The notes: generated by a model not told the origin, from the sequence alone. DNA of 64,000 nucleotides from an uncultured virus (IMG/VR IMGVR_UViG_3300007722_002942) (IMGVR_UViG_3300007722_002942), one strand, 5' to 3'. Counted from the first letter of the stretch, positions 9,633 to 56,157 are shown. A program made the numbers and translations.

Positions 9633-10465
9633 AGTGGAATACAATCTATACAGATGATAATCTTACTGTTCTTAAGGAATTAGTAGATAATAAGGTTCTA
9701 TTTGATTTAGTACTAACAGACCCTCCTTATAATATAGGTAAGGATTTTGGAAATGATACAGACAAGATGCCATTAGAAGAATTTCTTGAAGGTTTAGAAA
9801 AACGCATAGAACTTATTGACGGATTGCTTTCTAATGTAGGAAGTATTGTTTGTTTTTGTACTCATCGTTATGTAGGGCATTTGCAGATGCTAATGTATAA
9901 GAGATGGCAATACAGAAGATTAATGATCTGGTTTTATAAAAATGGAATGAGTAGGCAAACAAAAGAGCCTGTAACAGAATACGACCCGTTTTTATGGTTT
10001 AGTAAAACAGAAAATTATACATACAATATGGAAGATATAAGAGTTCCATATAGATCTGATAGGGTTAAGAATCCTGTATATAAAAAAGATACTCATGGTA
10101 ACAAAAGAGCGTGGCATCCAAACCCAGATGGTGCAAAAAGAGGGGATGTATGGGAATATCCAACCTTATCAGGTAAGGTTTTTGAAAATGAAAGAACTGA
10201 GCATCCTACTCAAAAACCAGAAGATTTAACTATCGATTTAATAAAGGCTTTTTGTCCTAAAGGTAAAGATGGGAAATATGAGGGTAATATACTAGACCCA
10301 TATTTAGGATCAGGAACAACAGCATTTTGTATAGAAAAACTTAATAGGCTTTATGGTCATAGGATAAAATGGATTGGAATAGAATTAGAGGAAAAATGGG
10401 TTAAAGTGGCGAATAATAGGATAGAACAAGAAAGGAATAAACAACCACAAATTGATTTATTTTAA
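9623..10465 (+). CDS. N6-adenine/N4-cytosine DNA methyltransferase (beta class)
   Basis: TDPPY, HPTQKP, LDPYLGSGTT. Confidence 0.92.
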   Translation: MDIKWNTIYTDDNLTVLKELVDNKVLFDLVLTDPPYNIGKDFGNDTDKMPLEEFLEGLEKRIELIDGLLSNVGSIVCFCTHRYVGHLQMLMYKRWQYRRLMIWFYKNGMSRQTKEPVTEYDPFLWFSKTENYTYNMEDIRVPYRSDRVKNPVYKKDTHGNKRAWHPNPDGAKRGDVWEYPTLSGKVFENERTEHPTQKPEDLTIDLIKAFCPKGKDGKYEGNILDPYLGSGTTAFCIEKLNRLYGHRIKWIGIELEEKWVKVANNRIEQERNKQPQIDLF

Positions 10466-14705: not shown

Positions 14706-15173
14706 ATGGAAACAGAATCATACATAAAACATAAATTAATAATAGTTCCTCAAGATGAAGATAATTGTATAGAAATATCAATGATATCTTCATCTTTATA
14801 TACAGATCCATCTCCATCTACAGATTATGTTAATTCTATTTTTACTTATGACAAGATTGAGATATGCGGTGGTTTTGTAGTAATATATAATGGCTTTTTT
14901 AAAGTTCATTGTTATCCTAAACTTGATAAGTATGCTGATTTTGCCAAAAAAGCATATAAACAAAATGCAGTAAATTTTATAGCATTACCTGCGTCATGTA
15001 TTAAATTCATTAAATTTGAAAATAAATTAGGTTGGTTCAATGTAACAGAAGATGAAGCATCTAGGGAATCTGATAATATATACAATACTGTAAGAGGAGA
15101 ATGGCTTAAAAAGAGTTTTTTATATAAAATGTTTTGTAACTTTAATGAATACGGATCATATCATAATGCTTGA
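14706..15173 (+). CDS. hypothetical protein
   Basis: ORF with AAGGA RBS. Confidence 0.6.
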   Translation: METESYIKHKLIIVPQDEDNCIEISMISSSLYTDPSPSTDYVNSIFTYDKIEICGGFVVIYNGFFKVHCYPKLDKYADFAKKAYKQNAVNFIALPASCIKFIKFENKLGWFNVTEDEASRESDNIYNTVRGEWLKKSFLYKMFCNFNEYGSYHNA

Positions 15174-15660
15174 AGTCATTATATCAGGAGGACAGACAGG
15201 TGTTGATATTGCAGGACTGATTGCTGGAAAAGCATCAGGATTAAAAACTGGAGGTTGGATGCCAAAGGGCTTTAGAAGGCTAGACGGTAATTTTCCAGAT
15301 ATGCAAATAGAATTTGGTATGAAAGAACATGAATCTTGGAATTATAAGTTAAGAACTTATTGTAATGTTAGAGATGGAGATGCTACATTAAGAATTGCTC
15401 ATAACTTTTATTCTCCAGGTGAAATATGCACTAAAAAGGCAATTTCCTATTATGAGCGACCATTTTTAGATTTATGTATAACAAGCCTTGATCCTGTGGA
15501 TAAAGTAGCAGAGTGGATAATTAATGGGAATTTCAGAGTTTTGAACGTCGCTGGAAATTCCGAGCAAACTTTCTCCGGAATTCAGAAAAAATCGGTTACA
15601 TACTTGACAGCGGTTTTTGGGCTTGTCGCACAAAATCGTGGAATTTTGAAAAAAATTTGA
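15145..15660 (+). CDS. SLOG-family protein (putative molybdenum-carrier-like)
   Basis: IISGGQTGVD, GGWMPKG, RT..NVRDGDATL, LNVAGN. Confidence 0.85.
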   Translation: MNTDHIIMLEVIISGGQTGVDIAGLIAGKASGLKTGGWMPKGFRRLDGNFPDMQIEFGMKEHESWNYKLRTYCNVRDGDATLRIAHNFYSPGEICTKKAISYYERPFLDLCITSLDPVDKVAEWIINGNFRVLNVAGNSEQTFSGIQKKSVTYLTAVFGLVAQNRGILKKI

Positions 15661-15680: not shown

Positions 15681-15708
15681 TTGAAGTGATACGATAAGAC
15701 GGTATAAT
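15681..15708 (+). promoter_or_regulatory. sigma70-type promoter giving a probably leaderless transcript
   Basis: TTGAAG-N16-TATAAT; ATG 15715 lies 7 nt after the -10 box and has no RBS. Confidence 0.7.
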
Positions 15709-15714
15709 ACCATT

Positions 15715-15792
15715 ATGAAACAGAACTTATCATCTTCGTTGTCTTGCCTCTATTTGAGTCTATCAAATAGGGCTTTGACATTGCAAGGATGA
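15715..15792 (+). CDS. attenuator leader peptide MKQNLSSSLSCLYLSLSNRALTLQG
   Basis: 25-codon ORF; codons 5-17 are only Leu/Ser/Cys/Tyr; overlaps the antiterminator strand. Confidence 0.8.
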   Translation: MKQNLSSSLSCLYLSLSNRALTLQG

Positions 15793-15825
15793 ATCACGCA
15801 TCCAAATTAGCAATATCAAAGCCCT
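15769..15825 (+). promoter_or_regulatory. antiterminator hairpin
   Basis: AGGGCTTTGACATTGC (15769-15784) pairs 15/16 with GCAATATCAAAGCCCT (15810-15825), which overlaps the 5' strand of the terminator. Confidence 0.8.
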
Positions 15826-15851
15826 GTCAGAAATGATGGGGCTTTTTCTTT
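15818..15851 (+). terminator. conditional intrinsic terminator (attenuator)
   Basis: AAAGCCCTGTCA-GAAA-TGATGGGGCTTT followed by TTCTTT. Confidence 0.88.
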
Positions 15852-15863
15852 GGTCTTTGACAA
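15852..15863 (+). promoter_or_regulatory. boxA-like Nus antitermination site
   Basis: GGTCTTTGACAA resembles rrn boxA (GCTCTTTAACAA), just ahead of the first tRNA. Confidence 0.55.
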
Positions 15864-15889
15864 GTGAATAGATTAACGCATTTATCACA

Positions 15890-15971
15890 GGGCGGTTGTC
15901 GGAGCGGCTAACGAGCTCGTCTGCAAAACGAGTGGAGCAATCCTTCATGGGTTCGAGTCCCATACTGCCCT
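15890..15971 (+). tRNA. tRNA-Cys(GCA) with long variable arm
   Basis: GGGCGGT/ACTGCCC, U73; CTCGT-CTGCAAA-ACGAG; variable arm GGA-GCAA-TCC. Confidence 0.88.
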
Positions 15972-15981
15972 TTTATAATAT

Positions 15982-16066
15982 GCCGCTATGACGGAATTGG
16001 TAGACGACCTGGATTCAAAATCCAGTGAGCTAAAAACTCGTGCAGGTTCGAATCCTGCTGGCGGTA
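15982..16066 (+). tRNA. tRNA-Leu(CAA)
   Basis: CTGGA-TTCAAAA-TCCAG; long variable arm; A73. Confidence 0.92.
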
Positions 16067-16074
16067 TTTTCTTT

Positions 16075-16158
16075 GTGTCGGTATGCAAACTGGATAAGCA
16101 GGCAGACTGTAAATCTGCTGCCTAACGGCGATTATAGGTTCGAGTCCTATCCGGCACA
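16075..16158 (+). tRNA. tRNA-Tyr(GTA)
   Basis: GCAGA-CTGTAAA-TCTGC; long variable arm. Confidence 0.92.
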
Positions 16159-16173
16159 TTGGTTTAGAGTATT

Positions 16174-16255
16174 GCGGGTGTGGCGTAATTGGCAGCCGCG
16201 CCAGATTTAGGTTCTGGTCTCGAAAGAGGTATGGGTTCAAATCCCTTCACCCGCA
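16174..16255 (+). tRNA. tRNA-Leu(TAG)
   Basis: CCAGA-TTTAGGT-TCTGG; GCGGGTG/CACCCGC. Confidence 0.92.
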
Positions 16256-16268
16256 TTTTTTATGATAT

Positions 16269-16353
16269 GCCGCCATGCCGGAATTGGTAGACGACCTGGA
16301 TTTAAAATCCAGTGAGCTAAAAACTCGTGCAGGTTCGAATCCTGCTGGCGGTA
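16269..16353 (+). tRNA. tRNA-Leu(TAA)
   Basis: CTGGA-TTTAAAA-TCCAG; near-copy of tRNA-Leu(CAA). Confidence 0.92.
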
Positions 16354-16431
16354 TTTTTCTCCGGAAGTATTTTATAATGTCTTATCTTTAGGGCATGTTT
16401 AACCAAATATTCTTTAGAAAAAGGAAAAACC

Positions 16432-16770
16432 ATGATTATCCTAGACGGTGGAAAATCTTTAGAAAAAGAACAATATCTTTCTGGTAGAGTTATATTTTTC
16501 AAAGGTGATACGGCAGGTCGAAATTATCAAGAAGGTGAGCAATGCGCCTTTTATTGCGGACCAGAATCAGAGACAGAGGGAATGCTCAGTGATTATGAAT
16601 CTGTTAATGATATTATGAATGAAGCTTTTGAAGGCTCAGGACTTAATATTGATATAGGTGCTTCCGAATCATATCATCTTATATGGTATGATTCTACTAA
16701 GTCTTTTGAAGAAGTTTGGGAAATAGTCAAAAATAGATTAATTCCCCTTGGATTTATTGAAATAGATTAA
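16432..16770 (+). CDS. hypothetical protein within tRNA array
   Basis: AAGGA RBS; acidic 112-aa ORF. Confidence 0.65.
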   Translation: MIILDGGKSLEKEQYLSGRVIFFKGDTAGRNYQEGEQCAFYCGPESETEGMLSDYESVNDIMNEAFEGSGLNIDIGASESYHLIWYDSTKSFEEVWEIVKNRLIPLGFIEID

Positions 16771-16798
16771 TTTCATATTGGTATGAAAAATTGATAAA

Positions 16799-17014
16799 AT
16801 GAATAACAAACTCCTGTCATTAAAAACCGTGTCCAAAAGATTAATAGAAATTCATGTAAAAAAGAAGAAAATGTCGGAAAAGTTTGCATTAGAAGAGAAA
16901 GAAGTTAAAGATAGATGTCCTCATAATTTTGTATACGAGCCAGATCCTTCTGGGAATAATGATTCAGGTTACTATTGTTCAACATGTGATAAGTGGGTAA
17001 AAAATATCACATAA
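16799..17014 (+). CDS. small Zn-binding-like protein
   Basis: CPH...CSTC. Confidence 0.6.
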   Translation: MNNKLLSLKTVSKRLIEIHVKKKKMSEKFALEEKEVKDRCPHNFVYEPDPSGNNDSGYYCSTCDKWVKNIT

Positions 17015-17041
17015 ATAGAATATCATTACGTATGTTTTTAA

Positions 17042-17126
17042 GTCCTTATGGCGGAATTGGCAGACGCACCACTTTAAGGTAGTGGCAACCGAAAGGTTAT
17101 TGCAGGTTCGAATCCTGCTAAGGATA
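17042..17126 (+). tRNA. tRNA-Leu(AAG)
   Basis: GTCCTTA/TAAGGAT; CCACT-TTAAGGT-AGTGG gives anticodon AAG; long variable arm. Confidence 0.88.
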
Positions 17127-17135
17127 TTATAGTAT

Positions 17136-17274
17136 GCTGCGGCAAACGCTGCGGAAGCGTTGACAGGTTGCCAGTCAAATCGATTGAGTCTGCTACGTCT
17201 GAGACTGGTGATTGTCGTCATACATGTGGACTCCCGTGTATTGATTTAGATAGGTTCGACTCCTATTCGCAGCT
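17136..17274 (+). ncRNA. tRNA-like RNA with extended anticodon and variable arms
   Basis: Acceptor GCTGCGG/TCGCAGC and T arm ATAGG-TTCGACT-CCTAT flank oversized arms. Confidence 0.7.
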
Positions 17275-17339
17275 TTGATAAGATAAAGGATTGTAAACAT
17301 TAATCTTTATCTTTATGGTAAGTCAATAGAATGAAATTT

Positions 17340-17428
17340 GGAAGTGTGGCCGAGCGGCTTAAGGCTCAAGTTTGCTAAACTTGCGGGTTAAATTGATAGC
17401 CCCACAGGTTCGAATCCTGTCACTTCCG
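17340..17428 (+). tRNA. tRNA-Ser(GCT)
   Basis: CAAGT-TTGCTAA-ACTTG; G73. Confidence 0.92.
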
Positions 17429-17429
17429 T

Positions 17430-17617
17430 TTACAGTTGCGATGCCTTAACTGGCTGAGTGCAGGAATATGGTAAAGCTAGAAATTATGACAAAAGGGCGT
17501 ACTCTGAGTTTGTTCTAAATGAGCAATAGGATAGTTAAGACTGCATCTAGGCTATCATCAGACCCGGCCATGAGCCGAGCGGGAACCGTCATAATACCAA
17601 TTAAGTCGCAACTGTAA
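17430..17617 (+). ncRNA. unidentified 188-nt structured RNA
   Basis: 12-bp perfect closing stem TTACAGTTGCGA/TCGCAACTGTAA with nested helices; fills the gap between two tRNA-Ser genes. Confidence 0.65.
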
Positions 17618-17619
17618 TT

Positions 17620-17705
17620 GGAAACGTGACTGAGTGGCTTAAGGTACTTGTTTCGAAAACAGGAGGCGGGAATCCCGCCCGCGAGTTCGAATCTCGCCGT
17701 TTCCG
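17620..17705 (+). tRNA. tRNA-Ser(CGA)
   Basis: CTTGT-TTCGAAA-ACAGG; GGAAACG/CGTTTCC. Confidence 0.92.
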
Positions 17706-17719
17706 TTGAAAGGATTTTT

Positions 17720-17869
17720 ATGAAAAGGTATCCATGTGGATTATCAAAATATGAATGGTATAGCATTATGGATAAAACAAAGGAATTAGACGACTTATAT
17801 TATAGATATATAAGAGACTATAAGCCAACAATTATAGAAAGAATTTTTTGTTTTATAAGCAGATTGTGA
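17720..17869 (+). CDS. small hypothetical protein
   Basis: AAGGA RBS; track ORF trimmed past the tRNA. Confidence 0.45.
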   Translation: MKRYPCGLSKYEWYSIMDKTKELDDLYYRYIRDYKPTIIERIFCFISRL

Positions 17870-18021
17870 TATTCAATAAGGTTAATAATGAATAGTGTGT
17901 TTGCAAATTCTTATATAAAAACAAAAAGCGATGCTGTTAATAACAATATAATATCTGTATCTTTTGTATCAGAAGATTTTATAGAATGCGAAGAAGAGAT
18001 ATTTATCAAATAGGTAATAAG

Positions 18022-18412
18022 TGGTATTTAGCAATATCAGATATTAACAATGACGGACTGATAATTTAGGTGTTCCTACTTCAGATTGGACAACAGCAGC
18101 AAATATTGATCAGATTAATGGATCTGCTTCACAAGCAGAGCCAAGATTTGGTGGAGTTCCTTTAGGCTCTACTTATATGTATTTCCTTGTAGCAGGAGTG
18201 AGATATTGGGAATGGAAGCTTTCAGAAACAGCGTTATCAGCTCCTTAAATTTCTATGGAGATCCATTATATCCTGGTTCAATTACTGTCCCACAATACGC
18301 TAAGAACGTAACTAGTGACTTAACATGTATTGATGGTGTAATTTCTGGAACAGTTGTTCTTAAGGCCGTTACGGTTCCTGCTGATGGTGATTTGACTTTA
18401 ATTTTTGGCTGA
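18022..18412 (+). pseudogene. frameshifted fragment of a probable virion/structural-type gene
   Basis: Protein-like text (WYLAISDINNDG / TDNLGVPTSDW...RYWEW / FYGDPLYPGSIT...LTLIFG) continues across frame changes, with no clear start. Confidence 0.35.
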
Positions 18413-18420
18413 AAAGATTT

Positions 18421-18506
18421 GGTAGGTTTGGGCATTGGCAAGCCTCCTCGATTTGAAATCGAGCAAGCCTGAAAGGGCTTTGTCGGTTCGACTCCGGCAC
18501 CTACCG
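18421..18506 (+). tRNA. tRNA-Ser(TGA)
   Basis: CTCGA-TTTGAAA-TCGAG; GGTAGGT/ACCTACC; G73. Confidence 0.9.
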
Positions 18507-18510
18507 CTTT

Positions 18511-18597
18511 GGAAGATTAACCGCCTGGGCACAGCGGCCTCGTTTGGAAAACGAGTGGTGGTCTAAAAGCCATAAGGTTCGAGTCCTTAGTCTTCCG
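18511..18597 (+). tRNA. tRNA-Ser(GGA)
   Basis: CTCGT-TTGGAAA-ACGAG; GGAAGAT/GTCTTCC; G73. Confidence 0.88.
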
Positions 18598-18600
18598 TTT

Positions 18601-22908: not shown

Positions 22909-22980
22909 GCACCTGTAACTCAATTGGTAGAGTACGGTTTTCTAAAAACTAGAGTGAGGGTTCGAATCCCTCCAGGTGTT
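22909..22980 (+). tRNA. amber suppressor tRNA (anticodon CTA)
   Basis: GCACCTG/CAGGTGT; D arm ACTC/GAGT; CGGTT-TTCTAAA-AACTA with CTA at 22942-22944; T arm GAGGG-TTCGAAT-CCCTC. Confidence 0.8.
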
Positions 22981-33711: not shown

Positions 33712-36700
33712 ATGTCTGAATTCTTTGTAAAAAAACGTAATGGTAGATTAGAAAAATTAAACTTAGATAAGATAAATAAGTGTGTAGTAAGAGCATGTCA
33801 AGGTATACTTGATGTTTCTGCAAGCGAGGTTATACTTGATGCACAAGTACAGTTATTTAATAAAATAACAACAAATGAGATAGATAAAGCTCTTATTATG
33901 TCTGCAAGAAGCAAAATAGAAAAGGATCCAGGATATTCTATTGTTGCTGCTAGATTATTGCTTAATACAATATATAAAGAAGTTTTCGGTGAAGGAGTCG
34001 ATTCCGATGTTTTCGGTATGCAGTACCATAAGTCTTTTGTAACAAATTTAAAAGAATTACAAAAAGCAGGCCGTATCGATAAGAGAATGTTAACAGACTT
34101 TGATTTAAATAAGATAGCAAAATCACTAGTTCCTAAGAGGGATGATATTTGGAAATATCTTGGCATACAAACAGTGTATGACAGATATCTACTCCATATA
34201 AATGGTAGAAGAATGGAAACTCCACAGGGCTTCTGGATGAGAGTAGCTATGGGGCTTGCTATTAATGAAGAGAATAAGGATGATAAAGCTATAGAGTTTT
34301 ACAACTTGCTTTCTGAAAATTTATTTATTAATGGAACTCCAACGCTTTTTAACAGTGGTACAAACCATCCTCAATTAAGCTCTTGCTATCTTTCAACCGT
34401 TGACGATTCTATTGATGGTATTTTTGGGACTATTCATAATCAAGCTAAGCTATCTAAATTTGCTGGAGGACTTGGAGTTGATTGGACTCCCATACGAGGT
34501 TCATCTTCTTTTATAGCTGGTACAAATGGTAAATCTCAAGGTCTTGTTCCTTGGCTAAAAATATTTAACGATACGCTAGTAGCCGTAAATCAGTGTTTTG
34601 ATCCAGAAACATATGTTTTTACCGGAAAAGAAATTAAGCAGATTAAGAATGTCCAAAAAGGAGATTTTATTCTTTCCGGGAACGGAGAGCAATGTGAAGT
34701 TGAAGATGTTATGTTTTATGAGCAAAACGATGACATGGTTGAAATAGATATAAAACATTCTATCGATACTGTAAAAGTTACAACAGGACATCCATTTTTG
34801 GCTATACAGAATATACCTGCTGGAATTAACAATCAAAGAACTTATAACAAATTTGGCAAAGGTATAATTTCTACTGAATGGGTAGAAGCAAGTCTTCTTA
34901 AAACTGGAGATTATGTAGCATTTCCTATTCCAACGGACACTATAGCCGTAAATAACTTCAGTGATGACGATGCCTATTTATACGGACTAATGCTTGGAGA
35001 CGGACATATTTCATCAAATAAATCTGAATGCGGTGTATCTTTTAATATTAATACTAACCAGAAATCTATATTATGGATAAAAAAATATCTGGATAGTAAA
35101 AACATTCATTACTGGATAGATACTAGGGACGAATATTGTCAGGTAAGATGGAGTTTAAATGGTAATTTGCCTTTTGATTACGAAGATCTTTATAACAATG
35201 AAAGAAATAAAAGAATATCAGGAAAATTCATGCATCTTCCTAGACCTCAATCATTGATGATTATAAAAGGGCTACTTGATTCTGATGGAAATATTTCAAG
35301 AGGAAAAGAAATTATATTTAGTAATACATCTAGACTTTTAATAGAAGGATTGAGATATCAGATTCTTAGACTAGGAGCGCCTTCAGCAGGAAATAAAAGA
35401 ACAAGAGAATACGATCATGAAATTACCAGAGGAGATGGATCGATCTCTTTGATTAAGGGGACTACTGTTTCTTATGATTTAATAATACCTGCTATTAAGG
35501 AAATTGCTAGATTAATAGGGTCTAAAGCTTTAACAAGGAAAAATTGGCTTGTAATTAATAATTATATTTTTAGTAGAGTTGAGTCAGTTAGGAAAATAGA
35601 TAAATTGCCCATAGTTGTTGATTTGAAGGTTAAGAGAGATGAAACCTATACAACAAGTTCAGGATTGGCACACAATGGAGGAAAAAGGAAGGGTGCCGGT
35701 TGTGCCTATCTAGAAACATGGCACACAGATATAGAAGATTTTTTGGAACTTAGAAAAAACACAGGAGACGATAGGAGACGATGCCACGATATGCATACTG
35801 CTAATTGGATACCAGATCTCTTTATGAGAAGAGCAAAAGAAGATGGAGATTGGTATCTGTTTAGTCCAAGTGACTGCCCTGATTTACACGATTTGTTTGG
35901 AAAAGCTTTTGATAAAGCTTATATCTCGTATTGCAAAAAAGCAGAAAATGGAGATATACCATTTAAGAAAGTATCTGCAAAATCTCTTTGGAAGAAAATG
36001 CTTGTTTCTTTATTTGAGACAGGTCATCCTTGGATAACTTTTAAAGATCCATCTAATATTAGGTATTCTAATCAGCATGTGGGAACTGTTCGTTCTTCTA
36101 ATCTTTGTACGGAAATACTACTGCATTCTAAGCCTACAATGTATGATTCTTTAGGAGATGTATCGGAGATCGGGGAGACAGCCGTTTGTAATCTAGGATC
36201 TATAAATTTAGCAGCTCATGTGGAAAATGGAAAAATTAATTATGAGAAGCTAGCAACTTCTATATCTATTGCCATGAGAATGCTAGATAATGTTATTGAT
36301 ATAAATTTCTATCCAACAAAAGAATCTAAAAAATCAAATATTTCTCATAGACCAGTAGGACTTGGAATTATGGGATTTCATGATACTATACATATGCTTG
36401 GCATAGATTATGATTCAGACATGGCAGCAGAAGAGTCTGGAAAGATACAAGAGTTTATATCATATCATGCTATTTTGAATTCAAGCATTTTAGCCAAGGA
36501 GAGGGGAAAATACTCTACATACGATGGTTCATTATGGAATCTTGGCAAACTTCCTCAAGATACTCATGAGGATGTCATGAATTACAGAGGAAGTGATGAT
36601 AAGATAAAAGAGACATTAGATTGGAGTATTGTTAGAAAACATATTTCAGAATATGGTATGAGAAATTCCAATACACTAGCTATTGCGCCAACTGCTACGA

Positions 36701-37248
36701 TTTCTTATATTGCAGGGTGTTCACAGAGTATTGAGCCTGATTTTTCAGTATTGTTCGTTTACAGCACATTGTCTGGTGAATTTACAATGATAAGTGATTT
36801 TTTCGTAAATGATATGAAGAAAAGCGGACTTTGGGGAAAAGATCTCACAGATGCTGTAAAGGCAGTAGATGGAGATATAGAGATGCTTAATTTACCAGAA
36901 AATATTAAGAAAAGATATAAAACTGCTTTTAGAATTAGTCCTCTTTCATTAATAAAATGTGCAGCTGCAAGGCAGGTTTGGATAGATCAGGGTCAAAGCC
37001 TTAATATATATGCAGATACAGATAGTTTAAAAATATTAAATGATATTTATATGTACGGATGGGAAAAAGGATTAAAAACGACATATTACCTTCGTGCTAA
37101 ATCAGCCAGTAAAATAGAAAAATCAACATCTTCAAATGTCTCTAATGGATATTTAAGTGGTGATAAAACAGAATCACAAACCACAGAAGTTAAAGCTTGC
37201 TCACTTGAAGCAAAACAGCGTGGTGATATATGCGAGGCTTGCCAATAA
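33712..37248 (+). CDS. nrdA: ribonucleotide reductase class Ia alpha subunit, intein-containing
   Basis: ATP cone VKKRNG; TPTLFNSG..QLSSC; SSNLCTEI; VCNLGS; APTATIS; C-terminal CEAC. Confidence 0.97.
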   Translation: MSEFFVKKRNGRLEKLNLDKINKCVVRACQGILDVSASEVILDAQVQLFNKITTNEIDKALIMSARSKIEKDPGYSIVAARLLLNTIYKEVFGEGVDSDVFGMQYHKSFVTNLKELQKAGRIDKRMLTDFDLNKIAKSLVPKRDDIWKYLGIQTVYDRYLLHINGRRMETPQGFWMRVAMGLAINEENKDDKAIEFYNLLSENLFINGTPTLFNSGTNHPQLSSCYLSTVDDSIDGIFGTIHNQAKLSKFAGGLGVDWTPIRGSSSFIAGTNGKSQGLVPWLKIFNDTLVAVNQCFDPETYVFTGKEIKQIKNVQKGDFILSGNGEQCEVEDVMFYEQNDDMVEIDIKHSIDTVKVTTGHPFLAIQNIPAGINNQRTYNKFGKGIISTEWVEASLLKTGDYVAFPIPTDTIAVNNFSDDDAYLYGLMLGDGHISSNKSECGVSFNINTNQKSILWIKKYLDSKNIHYWIDTRDEYCQVRWSLNGNLPFDYEDLYNNERNKRISGKFMHLPRPQSLMIIKGLLDSDGNISRGKEIIFSNTSRLLIEGLRYQILRLGAPSAGNKRTREYDHEITRGDGSISLIKGTTVSYDLIIPAIKEIARLIGSKALTRKNWLVINNYIFSRVESVRKIDKLPIVVDLKVKRDETYTTSSGLAHNGGKRKGAGCAYLETWHTDIEDFLELRKNTGDDRRRCHDMHTANWIPDLFMRRAKEDGDWYLFSPSDCPDLHDLFGKAFDKAYISYCKKAENGDIPFKKVSAKSLWKKMLVSLFETGHPWITFKDPSNIRYSNQHVGTVRSSNLCTEILLHSKPTMYDSLGDVSEIGETAVCNLGSINLAAHVENGKINYEKLATSISIAMRMLDNVIDINFYPTKESKKSNISHRPVGLGIMGFHDTIHMLGIDYDSDMAAEESGKIQEFISYHAILNSSILAKERGKYSTYDGSLWNLGKLPQDTHEDVMNYRGSDDKIKETLDWSIVRKHISEYGMRNSNTLAIAPTATISYIAGCSQSIEPDFSVLFVYSTLSGEFTMISDFFVNDMKKSGLWGKDLTDAVKAVDGDIEMLNLPENIKKRYKTAFRISPLSLIKCAAARQVWIDQGQSLNIYADTDSLKILNDIYMYGWEKGLKTTYYLRAKSASKIEKSTSSNVSNGYLSGDKTESQTTEVKACSLEAKQRGDICEACQ
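34594..35676 (+). mobile_element. intein (361 aa) with LAGLIDADG homing endonuclease
   Basis: Starts CFDPET, block B TTGHPF, LYGLMLGDG and IKGLLDSDG, ends AHN; removal restores AVNQ-GGKRKGA. Confidence 0.92.
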
Positions 37249-49302: not shown

Positions 49303-50055
49303 ATGAAGTTTGTTACCGACAGAATTAACACAGGTAAGGGTAAATCGTTTGATGACCTTATCAGAGACTTTGTTTCCAAGAAAGAAACAAAATTAGCTTC
49401 TGCATCTAAACAAGTCAAGACAGCAAATCTTGGTAATTTTGGCGATAAAAAAGCTAAGCCTTTTGGATCCAAGGAAGAAGACAAGGAAGAAGACAAGAAA
49501 GAAGATAAGAAAGAAGATAAGAAAGAAGACAAGAAAGAAGATAAGAAAGAAGATAAGAAAGAAGATAAGAAAGAAGTAGAGGCATCTGGTAAGGGTAATG
49601 CTGTTAAGGATGAAGAAGGTGTTTCATCTGGACAATTGGATGTTGAGCCTTTGCATCAAGAAGGCGAATCCACTCCTAAGCCTCACAAGGGTGGCGATAA
49701 AAAGAAAGCATCAGCAGACAAGGGTGATAAATGCAAGGATGAATGTCCTTCAACTGGGCAACCAGAATGGGAAGGCAAGAATACTAATGATCCAGATGCT
49801 GGTAAGCACAGAGAGGGCGATGGCGATCAAAAGAAAGCTAATGCTAAGGCTTCTACAAAGAAGGCAGAAGCAGAATGCGATTGTGACAAAGATAATTGCG
49901 AGAAGTGCAATGAAAAGAAAGATTGCTCAGCAAGTTCTGAAGGCAAATTCATTCGTATTGCTAACTTAAATAATAAGAGCAAAAAATGGCTTGCTGAATA
50001 CTGGAAAAATCTTTATCCAGCAGAGTATGTTGACGCTATGCTTTCAGATAAATAA
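49303..50055 (+). CDS. highly charged probable head/scaffold-associated protein
   Basis: GGAG RBS; KKED repeats. Confidence 0.65.
   Translation: MKFVTDRINTGKGKSFDDLIRDFVSKKETKLASASKQVKTANLGNFGDKKAKPFGSKEEDKEEDKKEDKKEDKKEDKKEDKKEDKKEDKKEVEASGKGNAVKDEEGVSSGQLDVEPLHQEGESTPKPHKGGDKKKASADKGDKCKDECPSTGQPEWEGKNTNDPDAGKHREGDGDQKKANAKASTKKAEAECDCDKDNCEKCNEKKDCSASSEGKFIRIANLNNKSKKWLAEYWKNLYPAEYVDAMLSDK
49471..49575 (+). repeat. 12-bp tandem repeat encoding (KKED)n
   Basis: AAGAAAGAAGAY units, about 8-9 copies. Confidence 0.9.
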
Positions 50056-53889: not shown

Positions 53890-56157
53890 ATGCCCATAAG
53901 AATGATAGTAGGAGATAGTTCTGAAAAGGGAAAAAAAAGATTAACAGCCTCTTCTGGAGCTTTTAATAAAGATGCAGTTAAGCCAATATCTGGTAAAAAT
54001 ATACCTTACGCAAAGACATCTGTATCTTTTACTCCTATAACTAAAAATTCTCAGTTTGCAGGTTCGGCTGCAAATAGTATTTTTACACAGCCCATGTTCT
54101 TTTCTCCAATGCATACGCCACAAAACTGGCAGATTGCATCTAAGAGGAGAGAGATCTATCAGTGGTCGAGATTCTATTACGAAAATGAACCAAAAGTTGC
54201 CGCCGGTGTAGATTTTTACGCTGGTTTTCCGATGAATGGTTTCAAATTAGAATGTAAATCTAAACAAATATTAGAGTATTATGAGCAGGCTGTAGAAGAT
54301 CTAGATTTGGCAGACTGGGTTGGTCATATAAGTCATGAGTATTTTCTTATTGGAGATGTATTTCCATTTTTAGAAATAGGATGTCCTGAATGTGAAGGCA
54401 AAAATCCAAAATGTAATCATCCTGGAGGATATTTTAAATCTATTAGACTTATGAATCCTGATTACATAGAAGTTCAAGATAGTGTTTTGGCTGACCAGCC
54501 ATCTATAGCTATGGTTCCTGATGAAGAACTTAGAATGCTAGTTCAAAGAAGAGAGCCTAAGAAGATTTATGACAAACTTCCTAGAGAATTGATAGAGATG
54601 GTTTCAACTGGAAAGCCAGTTCCATTATCTAATAGAAGTATAAGCCATCTGAAATATAACGGTAGTGCCTACGGTGTATACGGGACATCCATGTTACGTA
54701 GGTTATTTACTATACTTGCATATAAAACAAAGTTAATGACAGCTAACTGGATTGTTGCAGAAAGACTTATTCTTCCTGTAAGAGTTGTTAAGGTTGGAGA
54801 TAAGGATCGTCCTGCGAGTGAGGAAGATTTGGCTGATGTTGCAAACCAGCTAGCAGCGGTTGTTAATGATCCTAACTTATCTATTATTACCCATCATGCT
54901 TTTGAGTACGAGTGGTTCGGAGCTAGTGGCAAGATACATAATCTTACAAATGAGATGGAAGAAATAGGAAAAGAAATTCTAGATGGGTTGATGTTAAACC
55001 AGTCTCTTTTAAACGGAGAAATGCCTGGCTATAATTCGGCACAGGTTGGTGTTGAGATTATGATTCGCAGAGTTGAGAATTGGAGAAATAAGCTTTCTAA
55101 ATGGGTAGAAAATAAGATATTTAAACCTATTGCTATGATGCAGGGATTTGTTGACGAGGAAAGATCGGCAAATCTTGGAAAAACTGTTTATATGTATCCA
55201 ACCGTCAAGTGGAATGATTTGCGACTCAGAGATAAAACAAATTGGGTACAGCTTCTTATGCAGGGTTACGATAAGGGTATGGTATCTCTACAGACGGTAC
55301 TTGAAGAAATGAATCTTGATTACGATGTTGAAATTGAAAGACGTAGAGAGGAAACAATGGTTACTTCTGCTACTGGACAAGCTATGCCAGGAGGTCCAGG
55401 AGGCGGAGCAGGAGCTCCTATGGGTGGCGGACCAGGTGGTGGACCACCTCCGGGAGGCCCTATGGGTGGAGATCCAGGAATGCCTCCCCCACCAGGTCCA
55501 GAAGCAGGCGGCGCTCCTCCAGGAGGAGATATGGGAGCAGGCGGAGCACCAGGTGGAGCTCCAGGAATGGGAGCTGCTGCTGGAATTGGTATGAATCCAG
55601 GAGAGTCCGGACCTCCTCCAAAGGTTATGAAAAAAGGTAAATCATCCAAGGATGAAGTTGAAGCACCTGCTCCTAGGATATTCAAGCTTACAAAGCTAGA
55701 ACAAAAGATGAAGAAAATGCTTGAGACTATGGATATTCCATATACTATGTTTGGTCAATACGAAATTAAGATGCCTGGACATCCTCAGCCATTTCTTTTA
55801 GATTTTGCATATCCAAAAATAGGAGTTGGAATAGAAACAGATGGTGCTATATGGCATGAGAGAGCAGATTTAAAAGCAAGAGATAAGCAAAGAGATCAGA
55901 TATTGGCAAATGTAGGATGGAGAGTTTTAAGATTTAGTGAGCAAGCTATAAATGAGCATATGGATGTTATTAGAGATATAGTTTCTAAAAATATAGCAGA
56001 AGCTGCTAGAACTAGAAAAAAGGCTGAATCTGAGAATATTATTACAAAAAATGCATCTGTTTCTTCATTTGTTGAAGATAATTTAGAGGAATTTCATGTT
56101 ACCAGAGATGAATTAGATAATGGTATGGGGTATCGTCTTATTATAAGTCATAAATAA
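53890..56157 (+). CDS. portal protein with Gly/Pro linker and C-terminal DUF559/Vsr-like domain
   Basis: Position in head module; W.RFYYENEP.V, YGTSML motifs; tail LDFAYPKIGVGIETDG..WH...DKQRD..L...GWRVLRF. Confidence 0.8.
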   Translation: MPIRMIVGDSSEKGKKRLTASSGAFNKDAVKPISGKNIPYAKTSVSFTPITKNSQFAGSAANSIFTQPMFFSPMHTPQNWQIASKRREIYQWSRFYYENEPKVAAGVDFYAGFPMNGFKLECKSKQILEYYEQAVEDLDLADWVGHISHEYFLIGDVFPFLEIGCPECEGKNPKCNHPGGYFKSIRLMNPDYIEVQDSVLADQPSIAMVPDEELRMLVQRREPKKIYDKLPRELIEMVSTGKPVPLSNRSISHLKYNGSAYGVYGTSMLRRLFTILAYKTKLMTANWIVAERLILPVRVVKVGDKDRPASEEDLADVANQLAAVVNDPNLSIITHHAFEYEWFGASGKIHNLTNEMEEIGKEILDGLMLNQSLLNGEMPGYNSAQVGVEIMIRRVENWRNKLSKWVENKIFKPIAMMQGFVDEERSANLGKTVYMYPTVKWNDLRLRDKTNWVQLLMQGYDKGMVSLQTVLEEMNLDYDVEIERRREETMVTSATGQAMPGGPGGGAGAPMGGGPGGGPPPGGPMGGDPGMPPPPGPEAGGAPPGGDMGAGGAPGGAPGMGAAAGIGMNPGESGPPPKVMKKGKSSKDEVEAPAPRIFKLTKLEQKMKKMLETMDIPYTMFGQYEIKMPGHPQPFLLDFAYPKIGVGIETDGAIWHERADLKARDKQRDQILANVGWRVLRFSEQAINEHMDVIRDIVSKNIAEAARTRKKAESENIITKNASVSSFVEDNLEEFHVTRDELDNGMGYRLIISHK

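Follow-up and report, generated by a model that had tools for sequence, protein, structure and literature searches.

Multivalent leaders, exemplified by those of thr and ilv, sample several amino acids. The tRNA genes of phages are usually explained by codon-usage matching or by the replacement of tRNAs that are cut by defence nucleases, and to our knowledge the timing and mode of their expression are hardly understood. The general mechanism of leader-peptide transcription attenuation is set out in two papers (PMC1183508, PMC3082878), and a preprint describes polycysteine attenuators of mycobacteria that consist of leaderless short open reading frames (ORFs) (bioRxiv 10.1101/834739). Here, we analyze a stretch of 64,000 nucleotides (nt) from the uncultured virus IMGVR_UViG_3300007722_002942, hereafter the window, in which a short leader with a promoter-like site at position 15,681 precedes ten tRNA genes. 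This leader is likely a translation-sensing attenuator of the tRNA array. We describe its sequence elements, the match between its codons and the array, the alternative folds of its RNA in models, and the recurrence of the same layout, with co-varying codons, in other phages.

The leader lies directly 3′ of a gene of the circularly permuted YpsA (cpYpsA)/SLOG family that ends at position 15660. A promoter-like site, a leader ORF, a terminator, a boxA-like 12-mer, and the tRNA array follow this gene in that order. The elements, all on the plus strand, are:

15681–15708, plus strand: promoter-like site with TTGAAG (15681–15686), a 16-nt spacer, and TATAAT (15703–15708); 10 of 12 consensus matches, putative in function.
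15715–15792, plus strand: leader ORF of 25 codons and TGA (15790–15792), its ATG 6 nt 3′ of the −10 box.
15727–15765, plus strand: regulatory run (leader codons 5–17) of 13 consecutive Leu, Ser, Cys, or Tyr codons, ten of them distinct, with at least one for each downstream anticodon.
15746–15773, plus strand: hairpin 1:2 (anti-antiterminator), 15746–15757 with 15763–15773, from the minimum-energy fold.
15769–15825, plus strand: antiterminator 2:3, 15769–15784 with 15810–15825, 15 of 16 positions paired, found by reading and in constrained folds.
15818–15852, plus strand: intrinsic terminator 3:4, a 12-pair stem (15818–15845) with a GAAA loop and a T tract, from the fold.
15854–15865, plus strand: boxA-like 12-mer TCTTTGACAAGT, a single exact copy in the window, identical to a 12-mer in the syntenic relative described below.
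15889–18598, plus strand: ten tRNA genes of 84–91 nt, each with a long variable arm, called by ARAGORN.

An earlier note, made from the sequence alone, had described a TTGAAG-N16-TATAAT promoter, a 25-codon ORF at 15715–15792, mutually exclusive 1:2, 2:3, and 3:4 hairpins, a GAAA-capped terminator with a U tract, and a boxA-like site between terminator and array. Promoter-like site and ORF are present at the coordinates it gave, the box lies at 15854–15865, and the three hairpins are recovered, with the core of 1:2 now placed at 15746–15773, 15 of 16 positions paired in 2:3, and a terminator stem of 12 pairs.

The array encodes, in order, tRNAs for Cys (anticodon GCA), Leu (CAA), Tyr (GTA), Leu (TAG), Leu (TAA), Leu (AAG), Ser (GCT), Ser (CGA), Ser (TGA), and Ser (GGA). 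Together these ten anticodons suffice to read all six codons for Leu, all six for Ser, and those of Tyr and Cys; the four amino acids account for 20.7% of the codons of the phage. Codons 5–17 of the leader had been read as TTA, TCA, TCT, TCG, TTG, TCT, TGC, CTC, TAT, TTG, AGT, CTA, and TCA, ten of them distinct, and this reading holds at 15727–15765. The claim that they correspond to exactly the ten tRNAs downstream is borne out by ARAGORN, which finds those ten: all 13 codons of the run fall within the 16-codon set, and 10 of the 10 array anticodons are addressed. Six of the codon-anticodon matches are Watson-Crick and four require wobble; TCT, TAT, and AGT would be read through a G:U pair, and CTC requires inosine or an A:C reading by anticodon AAG.

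Across all six frames of the window, the leader holds the sole run of 13 set codons, and this run covers all ten classes. The only longer run of set codons has 31 codons, lies on the minus strand, and covers 5 classes; the next longest has 10 codons. This 31-codon Leu/Ser/Cys/Tyr run (~49490–49580, minus strand) is antisense to an ORF at 49303–50055 and is probably a low-complexity or repeat stretch. From the window's own triplet frequencies, the chance that 13 set codons cover ten classes was estimated at 2e-10 at any one position, at 4e-8 over 200 positions upstream of the array, and at 2.6e-5 over the window as a whole. In 43 ORFs of the phage (15,833 codons), CTC makes up 2% of Leu codons and TCG 4% of Ser codons, and the leader uses both; CTT, which makes up 27% of Leu codons in the same ORFs, is absent from the leader. 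Because the rare CTC and TCG are used, the leader codons track the list of tRNAs and not codon bias. CTC rather than CTT also occurs in a second leader, on the minus strand of locus L297, and the arrays of both loci hold tRNA-Leu (AAG), which in the window lies at 17042–17126. This choice hints that tRNA-Leu (AAG) reads codons that end in C, for instance by means of inosine at position 34.

Folding of 15715–15860 gave a minimum energy of −45.9 kcal/mol, as compared with −30.2 (standard deviation 3.6) in 200 shuffled sequences (z −4.4), none of which (0/200) folded as well. The minimum-energy fold holds both hairpin 1:2 and the terminator, and hairpin 1:2 is lengthened by outer helices that pair 15730–15743 with 15777–15792. 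We then masked the footprint of a ribosome codon by codon and recomputed the ensemble each time, using four footprint sizes whose downstream edges ranged from +9 to +15. The terminator forms with a probability of 0.84–0.96 when the A site is at codons 1–8 and 16–26; when it is at codons 9–15, this probability is 0.00–0.05 and the long 2:3 helix forms instead. Across the four footprint sizes, the switch-sensitive zone ranges over codons 8–16. As a kinetic proxy, the RNA was folded only up to the terminator loop, before the 3′ arm of the terminator is available. Strand 3 is then paired (0.8) for a ribosome up to codon 15 and less so (0.4–0.5) once the ribosome has moved further on. Both kinds of fold indicate that the direction of the switch is classical, in that stalling leads to read-through and completion of the leader to termination. 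A search with the exact pattern of the two antiterminator arms matched only the same phage.

In the sequence of events that we infer for transcription start, leader translation, termination, boxA function, and physiological trigger, transcription would start at or next to the leader ATG, so that the RNA would be leaderless as judged from the distance between promoter and ATG. The first ribosome would read 13 codons that call on all ten downstream tRNAs. With fast decoding, it would proceed to the stop codon and cover or unwind strand 2, upon which the terminator would form and the polymerase would halt near 15850; a transcript 3′ end is expected near 15847–15852, and 37 nt separate the end of the terminator from the first tRNA. 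At a slow codon, whose tRNA may be in short supply, cleaved, or not charged, the ribosome would stall on or just before strand 1. Strand 2 would then pair with strand 3, the terminator would be blocked, and the polymerase would read through, pass the boxA-like site, a probable recruiter of host Nus antitermination factors, and transcribe the array. The new phage tRNAs would relieve the stall. Since the regulated product would be the very set of tRNAs for which the leader codons call, such a circuit would amount to negative-feedback, supply-on-demand control of Leu, Ser, Tyr, and Cys decoding. It could be triggered by the codon demand of late infection, by starvation for amino acids, or by nucleases that deplete host tRNAs.

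If leader and array are functionally linked, leader codons should change with array content among related phages, a comparison that the earlier note had proposed. The outcome was positive in the only syntenic relative found and in eleven records of unrelated phages. Relatives were sought with profiles of a von Willebrand factor A (vWA)-like protein (80 viral-contig and 80 metagenome loci) and of cpYpsA (80 viral-contig loci). These profile scans found only one syntenic relative with a tRNA array, locus L053 (the same as L088) of record G002. Scans of viral contigs with cpYpsA or the vWA-like protein as a single query gave no match, blastn against cultured phages gave matches in tRNA bodies only, and two further loci (G001 and L165) were set aside as uninformative copies with 100% identity.

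In L053, the gene order is the same and the vWA and cpYpsA proteins are 54% and 48% identical to those of the window; the record looks richer in G+C than the window in the stretch that was read. The cpYpsA gene is followed by TTGAAT, 17 nt, TAGGGT, 7 nt, and the ATG (9834) of a 29-codon ORF, so that the promoter-to-ATG geometry is common to both loci; an in-frame ATG at 9813 would extend this ORF to 36 codons. The leader contains 10 Ser or Cys codons in an 11-codon stretch, and its peptide sequence is unrelated to that of the window leader, with which it shares composition trends only. The Ser/Cys stretch is the maximum among 35,954 stop-free 11-codon windows in 27 kb, and every such window with at least eight matches lies inside this ORF. 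The tRNAs 3′ of the leader are Cys, Cys, Ser (TGA), Ser (GCT), and Ser (GGA). The array has no Leu tRNA, and the ORF no run of Leu codons. The exact 12-mer box is located after the first, atypical Cys tRNA. We noticed that a circularly permuted YpsA (SLOG) gene lies directly 5′ of the leader in both loci (15145–15660 in the window, 9267–9788 in L053); of 80 other phage loci carrying the gene, only L053/L088 has a tRNA array immediately 3′ of it.

The same layout was found in the eleven unrelated records, with other sets of amino acids. An initial scoring covered 21 arrays with at most 30 cognate codons in the loci then fetched, with 270-nt segments of the same locus as the null, and singled out the window, L053, and further loci that were then read individually. 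In L262, from a 476-kb record, TTGAAA, 16 nt, TATAAT, and a site resembling a Shine-Dalgarno (SD) sequence precede a 24-codon ORF with nine Gln or Asn codons in a 10-codon stretch. An antiterminator/terminator and T tract end 1 nt 5′ of tRNAs for Gln (CTG), Asn, Asn, Gln, and Gln (fold z −4.5). In L249, an 18-codon ORF with six consecutive Gln, Phe, or Cys codons is followed by a terminator and by Phe, Cys, and Gln tRNAs (fold z −4.4). L156, whose displayed stretch looks rich in G+C, has a 32-codon ORF with ATA, AGG, CGG, and GTC/GTT ahead of an array of Ile (TAT), Arg (CCT), Val (GAC), and Arg (CCG) tRNAs, and no clear terminator.

A less selected sample was drawn from the tRNAs listed in 50 phage records, from which 40 regions (675 kb) were picked by tRNA density only. 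They contain 527 tRNAs in 345 units, a unit being a tRNA with an upstream gap of at least 90 nt. Best-window binomial p values below 1e-5 were obtained for 21 units, against 9, 7, 6, and 7 in four array-swap controls and 5 on the antisense strand. Below 1e-6 the counts were 9, against 3, 2, 3, and 0 in the swaps and 0 antisense, and below 1e-7 they were 6, against 1, 1, 1, and 0 in the swaps and 0 antisense. Twelve of the 25 top-scoring units were inspected; one further unit (L287) is the L156 locus again, and the remaining 12 were left out. Nine of the inspected units were accepted as short ORFs with start and stop codons. The amino-acid sets of the leaders are as follows:

L294 and L265: Pro, Gln, and Arg.
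L300: Lys, Gln, Arg, and Asn.
L268: Thr, Lys, Gly, and Met.
L270: Pro, Phe, and Val.
L276: Glu and Pro.
L282: Gln.

Terminators are unmistakable in L294, L265, L300, L276, L268, and L270 and weaker in L282; L286 and L297 have none by the criteria used. Several candidates were rejected as leaders. In L176 a longer gene contains the match in a different reading frame, and a plain promoter adjoins the tRNA; in L174 it is the Lys-rich tail of a longer protein; in L252 and L261 it falls inside a longer ORF or in no ORF. A second site in L268 (at 4449) and L266 lack a start codon, and L281 has a 52-codon ORF with a weak match.

Among the 14 selected leaders, including that of the window, cognate codons cover every array anticodon in 13 (for example 10/10, 13/13, 9/9, 7/7, and 6/6), the remaining one being L276 (2/4 anticodons), and an intrinsic terminator is present in 10. 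Mean anticodon coverage is 0.96 for a leader's own array as compared with 0.53 for swapped arrays; a foreign array is fully covered in 30 of 182 swaps, mostly arrays of 2–4 anticodons. One record, G037, carries two leaders, in L286 (13407–13556) and L156 (8637–8735, minus strand), that match arrays of 13 and 4 tRNAs, respectively. Both lie in regions that look rich in G+C, both lack a terminator, and the ORF of L286 stops 5 nt 5′ of the first tRNA; they may act through Rho or processing instead. The L262 region (906–1133) also contains a 91-nt tRNA-Asn (GTT) with a long variable arm within the Gln/Asn array, as well as a stretch of ~135 nt with a tRNA-like start and end that may be a tRNA with an insertion.

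The box between terminator and array offered a selection of loci that does not depend on codons. The window box differs at one position from the 11-mer CTCTTTAACAA, which is located 131 nt 5′ of the 16S gene in the Escherichia coli rrnB leader and which we take to be boxA, the NusB/NusE site of rRNA antitermination. The motif TCTTTG(A/G)(A/C)AA has 159 copies in 3.54 Mb of loci, and 11 of them lie within 80 nt 5′ of a tRNA on the same strand, as compared with 1.5 expected. Viral contigs were also scanned with a longer 17-mer, the form common to the window and L282, which occurs 82 times in 80 loci. Of these occurrences, 9 (8 unique) have a tRNA within 120 nt downstream; those distant from a downstream tRNA may be chance occurrences or other elements. 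Four of the tRNA-associated boxes lie between tRNAs inside arrays (in L315, L348, L362, and L366, at locus position 2501 on the strand of the motif), one is the L053 site, and three head an array.

All three array-heading boxes, in L317 (the L282 locus), L324, and L380, are preceded by a codon-matched short ORF and then a terminator (3/3). Anticodon coverage is 2/2 in L317, 5/6 in L324 (6/6 if anticodon UGG reads CCC), and 5/5 in L380, whose leader samples Ile, Val, His, and Trp ahead of a Trp/Val/His/Ile array. The cassette of terminator, T tract, and box can be aligned across the window, L380, L324, and L317. The cassette of L265 aligns as well, with a box that diverges past TCTTTGACAA; in L053, no part of the cassette other than the box aligns clearly. 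We presume that the box is a processive-antitermination signal for a long untranslated operon.

Several observations weigh against the attenuator as proposed. The 5′ and 3′ ends of the transcript and the translation of the leader are predictions from sequence. Promoter-like hexamers occur at chance frequency in this AT-rich stretch (22 observed, 22.3 expected). The leader ORF lacks the SD-like motif that is present at 19 of 38 other ORFs, so its translation would depend on leaderless initiation. The earlier note had recognized a trp/his-type layout, had inferred that stalling frees the antiterminator, and had suggested folding with the ribosome footprint masked as a check. The folding models support that layout and the step from stall to antiterminator, with the fold flipping at codons 8–16, but codons 5–7 (TTA, TCA, TCT) and 17 (TCA) lie at or outside the sensitive zone and fail to flip the fold in the equilibrium model, so that the isoacceptors may not all be sensed equally. 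In full-length equilibrium folds of L262 and L249, the terminator persists wherever the ribosome is placed, and a switch appears there only in folds that end before the 3′ arm of the terminator. L053 has no recognizable terminator (fold z −0.9), two of its five tRNAs are called by ARAGORN only, and its leader contains four Tyr codons with no tRNA for Tyr on the fragment (186 kb, 39% complete according to CheckV). Swapped-array controls are not empty (0–3 units at p < 1e-6), and because the 14 leaders were picked by codon enrichment, their full coverage is partly built in.

Loci that lack terminators lend weight to a different output. The leader could sense decoding and act through Rho-dependent termination, 5′ processing, or precursor stability, with the hairpin at 15818–15845 serving mainly to end a short leader transcript. 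Four of the 14 leaders (L053, L156, L286, and L297, whose displayed regions look rich in G+C) combine matched codons with no terminator by the criteria applied; the stop codon of L286 leaves only 5 nt before the tRNA, the 3′ end of the L053 leader is able to pair with the 5′ strand of its first tRNA, and the boxA-like site suggests that Rho matters for untranslated tRNA operons. However, the terminator of the window is a textbook one and overlaps with an antiterminator, the folds change from one to the other when the footprint is masked, and terminators occur in 10 of the 14 leaders. We therefore regard this alternative as unlikely and favor attenuation at the terminator.

Coincidence would require that the ORF is an unused frame, that the hairpins end transcription of cpYpsA, and that the array has a constitutive promoter with the TTGACA at 15857. 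Promoter-like sites at chance frequency, the perfect −35 hexamer inside the box, and the lack of a terminator between cpYpsA and the leader would fit such an arrangement. It is contradicted by the chance estimate of ~4e-8 and by the recurrence of the layout with co-varying codons in the syntenic relative and the eleven unrelated records. As an array promoter, TTGACA was rejected: no acceptable −10 follows it in the window, and the spacing is wrong elsewhere. The start of the box is 14–18 nt from the tRNA in L265, L262, and L295 and 25–27 nt in L324 and L380, so a start site set by TTGACA would fall inside the tRNA. A coincidental match is thus very improbable. We give equally little credence to a functional micropeptide, in which the peptide itself would be the product and its composition would merely mirror the available tRNAs. 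Leader peptides that act in trans do exist, peTrpL being an example, but the peptides of the window and L053 share composition trends and not sequence, only the codon-to-array match and the RNA switch recur across loci, and rare codons are chosen in the leader. A leader that attenuates transcription of the array in response to its own translation accommodates these observations best.

The array itself has several unusual properties. It is made solely of tRNAs with a long variable arm, a grouping by structural class rather than by codon usage, and it is split by two stretches of small ORFs (16355–17041 and 17707–18420) in which no ORF has a family match. Eight of the ten tRNAs reach the gathering score of the Rfam tRNA model. 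The last two (at 18421 and 18510) score 45.6 and 35.0 bits against the tRNA-Sec model (gathering 47), with E values of 3e-8 and 1.6e-5, respectively. The first tRNA (Cys, GCA; 15889–15972), of 84 nt, is atypical in the ARAGORN structure, with 8-pair acceptor, 3-pair D, and 6-pair anticodon stems and a long variable arm, and it passes the Rfam tRNA gathering threshold at 51.7 bits. tRNAs of the Sec-like or "allo" type that carry Cys anticodons are known.

The window belongs to a large phage with a G+C content of 33%, and its genes include those for terminase, portal protein, ribonucleotide reductase, and NAD salvage. A tRNA with a CTA anticodon, of the amber-suppressor type, is present in the window (22909–22980) and in the syntenic relative G002 (L084, 5944–6016). 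TAG serves as the stop codon in 9 of 72 long window ORFs under the standard code. The large subunit of ribonucleotide reductase (33712–37248, 1178 amino acids) has family matches at residues 2–316 and 655–1169 and a poorly matched middle part, which suggests an inserted element such as an intein. In the portal protein (53890–56157, 755 amino acids), the C-terminal residues ~600–730 match PHROGs that are annotated as HNH endonucleases.

It is tempting to speculate that large phages carry modular, isoacceptor-resolved sensors, one "codon census" leader for each block of tRNAs, that switch on matching replacements. The element in the window could then be a dedicated counter-measure to the loss of class II tRNAs, inflicted by host or phage, for example through variable-loop or anticodon nucleases. 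This wider proposal is tentative. PMC13096335 reports a defence system that cleaves tRNA-Tyr in its variable loop; taken together with an array made only of tRNAs with long variable arms, this makes a counter-defence role conceivable. If leaders do take such a census, their codon choice (CTC for AAG, at two loci) would reveal how phage tRNAs decode, for example with inosine at position 34.

An isoacceptor-sampling leader would make phage tRNA supply a regulated, demand-driven function and would extend attenuation to a case in which the operon's own product is the sensed molecule. It would also provide a sequence signature for locating functional tRNA modules in uncultured phages and could yield natural components for sensors that resolve decoding capacity down to the single codon. 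From the codon-to-array rule, one can predict the tRNAs that share a transcription unit and the way in which unusual anticodons (AAG, ACG) are decoded.

The earlier note knew of no described attenuator that samples each isoacceptor of a phage tRNA array, and our literature searches agree: in full-text literature, we found no paper on leader-peptide attenuation of tRNA genes, though older print literature could be missed. A possible attenuator-like leader at the E. coli tRNA-Phe genes was looked for at pheV, where the upstream region shows only a promoter adjoining the tRNA. In the 64 kb, no Rfam leader (Trp, His, Leu, Thr, Phe) or T-box matches at gathering; the best sub-threshold leader is Phe_leader, at 15.1 bits against a gathering score of 55 (E 4.7).

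The closest described systems are the enterobacterial attenuators of trp, his, leu, thr, ilv, and pheA, in which a short ORF likewise carries regulatory codons, hairpins 1:2, 2:3, and 3:4 exclude one another, a U-tract terminator is present, and stalling favors read-through. Unlike these attenuators, the element in the window would regulate tRNAs and not biosynthetic enzymes, so that the sensed molecule and the product are of the same class. Its codons are chosen per isoacceptor, for ten anticodons of four amino acids and including the rare CTC and TCG, and it is phage-borne and followed by a boxA-like site. The polycysteine attenuators of mycobacteria resemble it in coupling stalling on a codon run of a leaderless short ORF to downstream expression, whereas they sense one amino acid, control protein-coding operons, and are chromosomal. 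T-box riboswitches also respond to whether a specific tRNA is charged and act on a terminator/antiterminator; in contrast, a T-box binds the tRNA itself by means of a single specifier codon, without translation, and controls synthetase or amino-acid genes. The box shares with rRNA boxA a position at the head of an untranslated RNA operon and differs from the E. coli rrnB element at a single position, but it follows an attenuator and precedes phage tRNAs, and its motif also occurs between tRNAs inside arrays. The proposed mechanism is classical; what is new is that tRNA genes are the target, that codons are chosen for individual isoacceptors, and that the setting is a phage.

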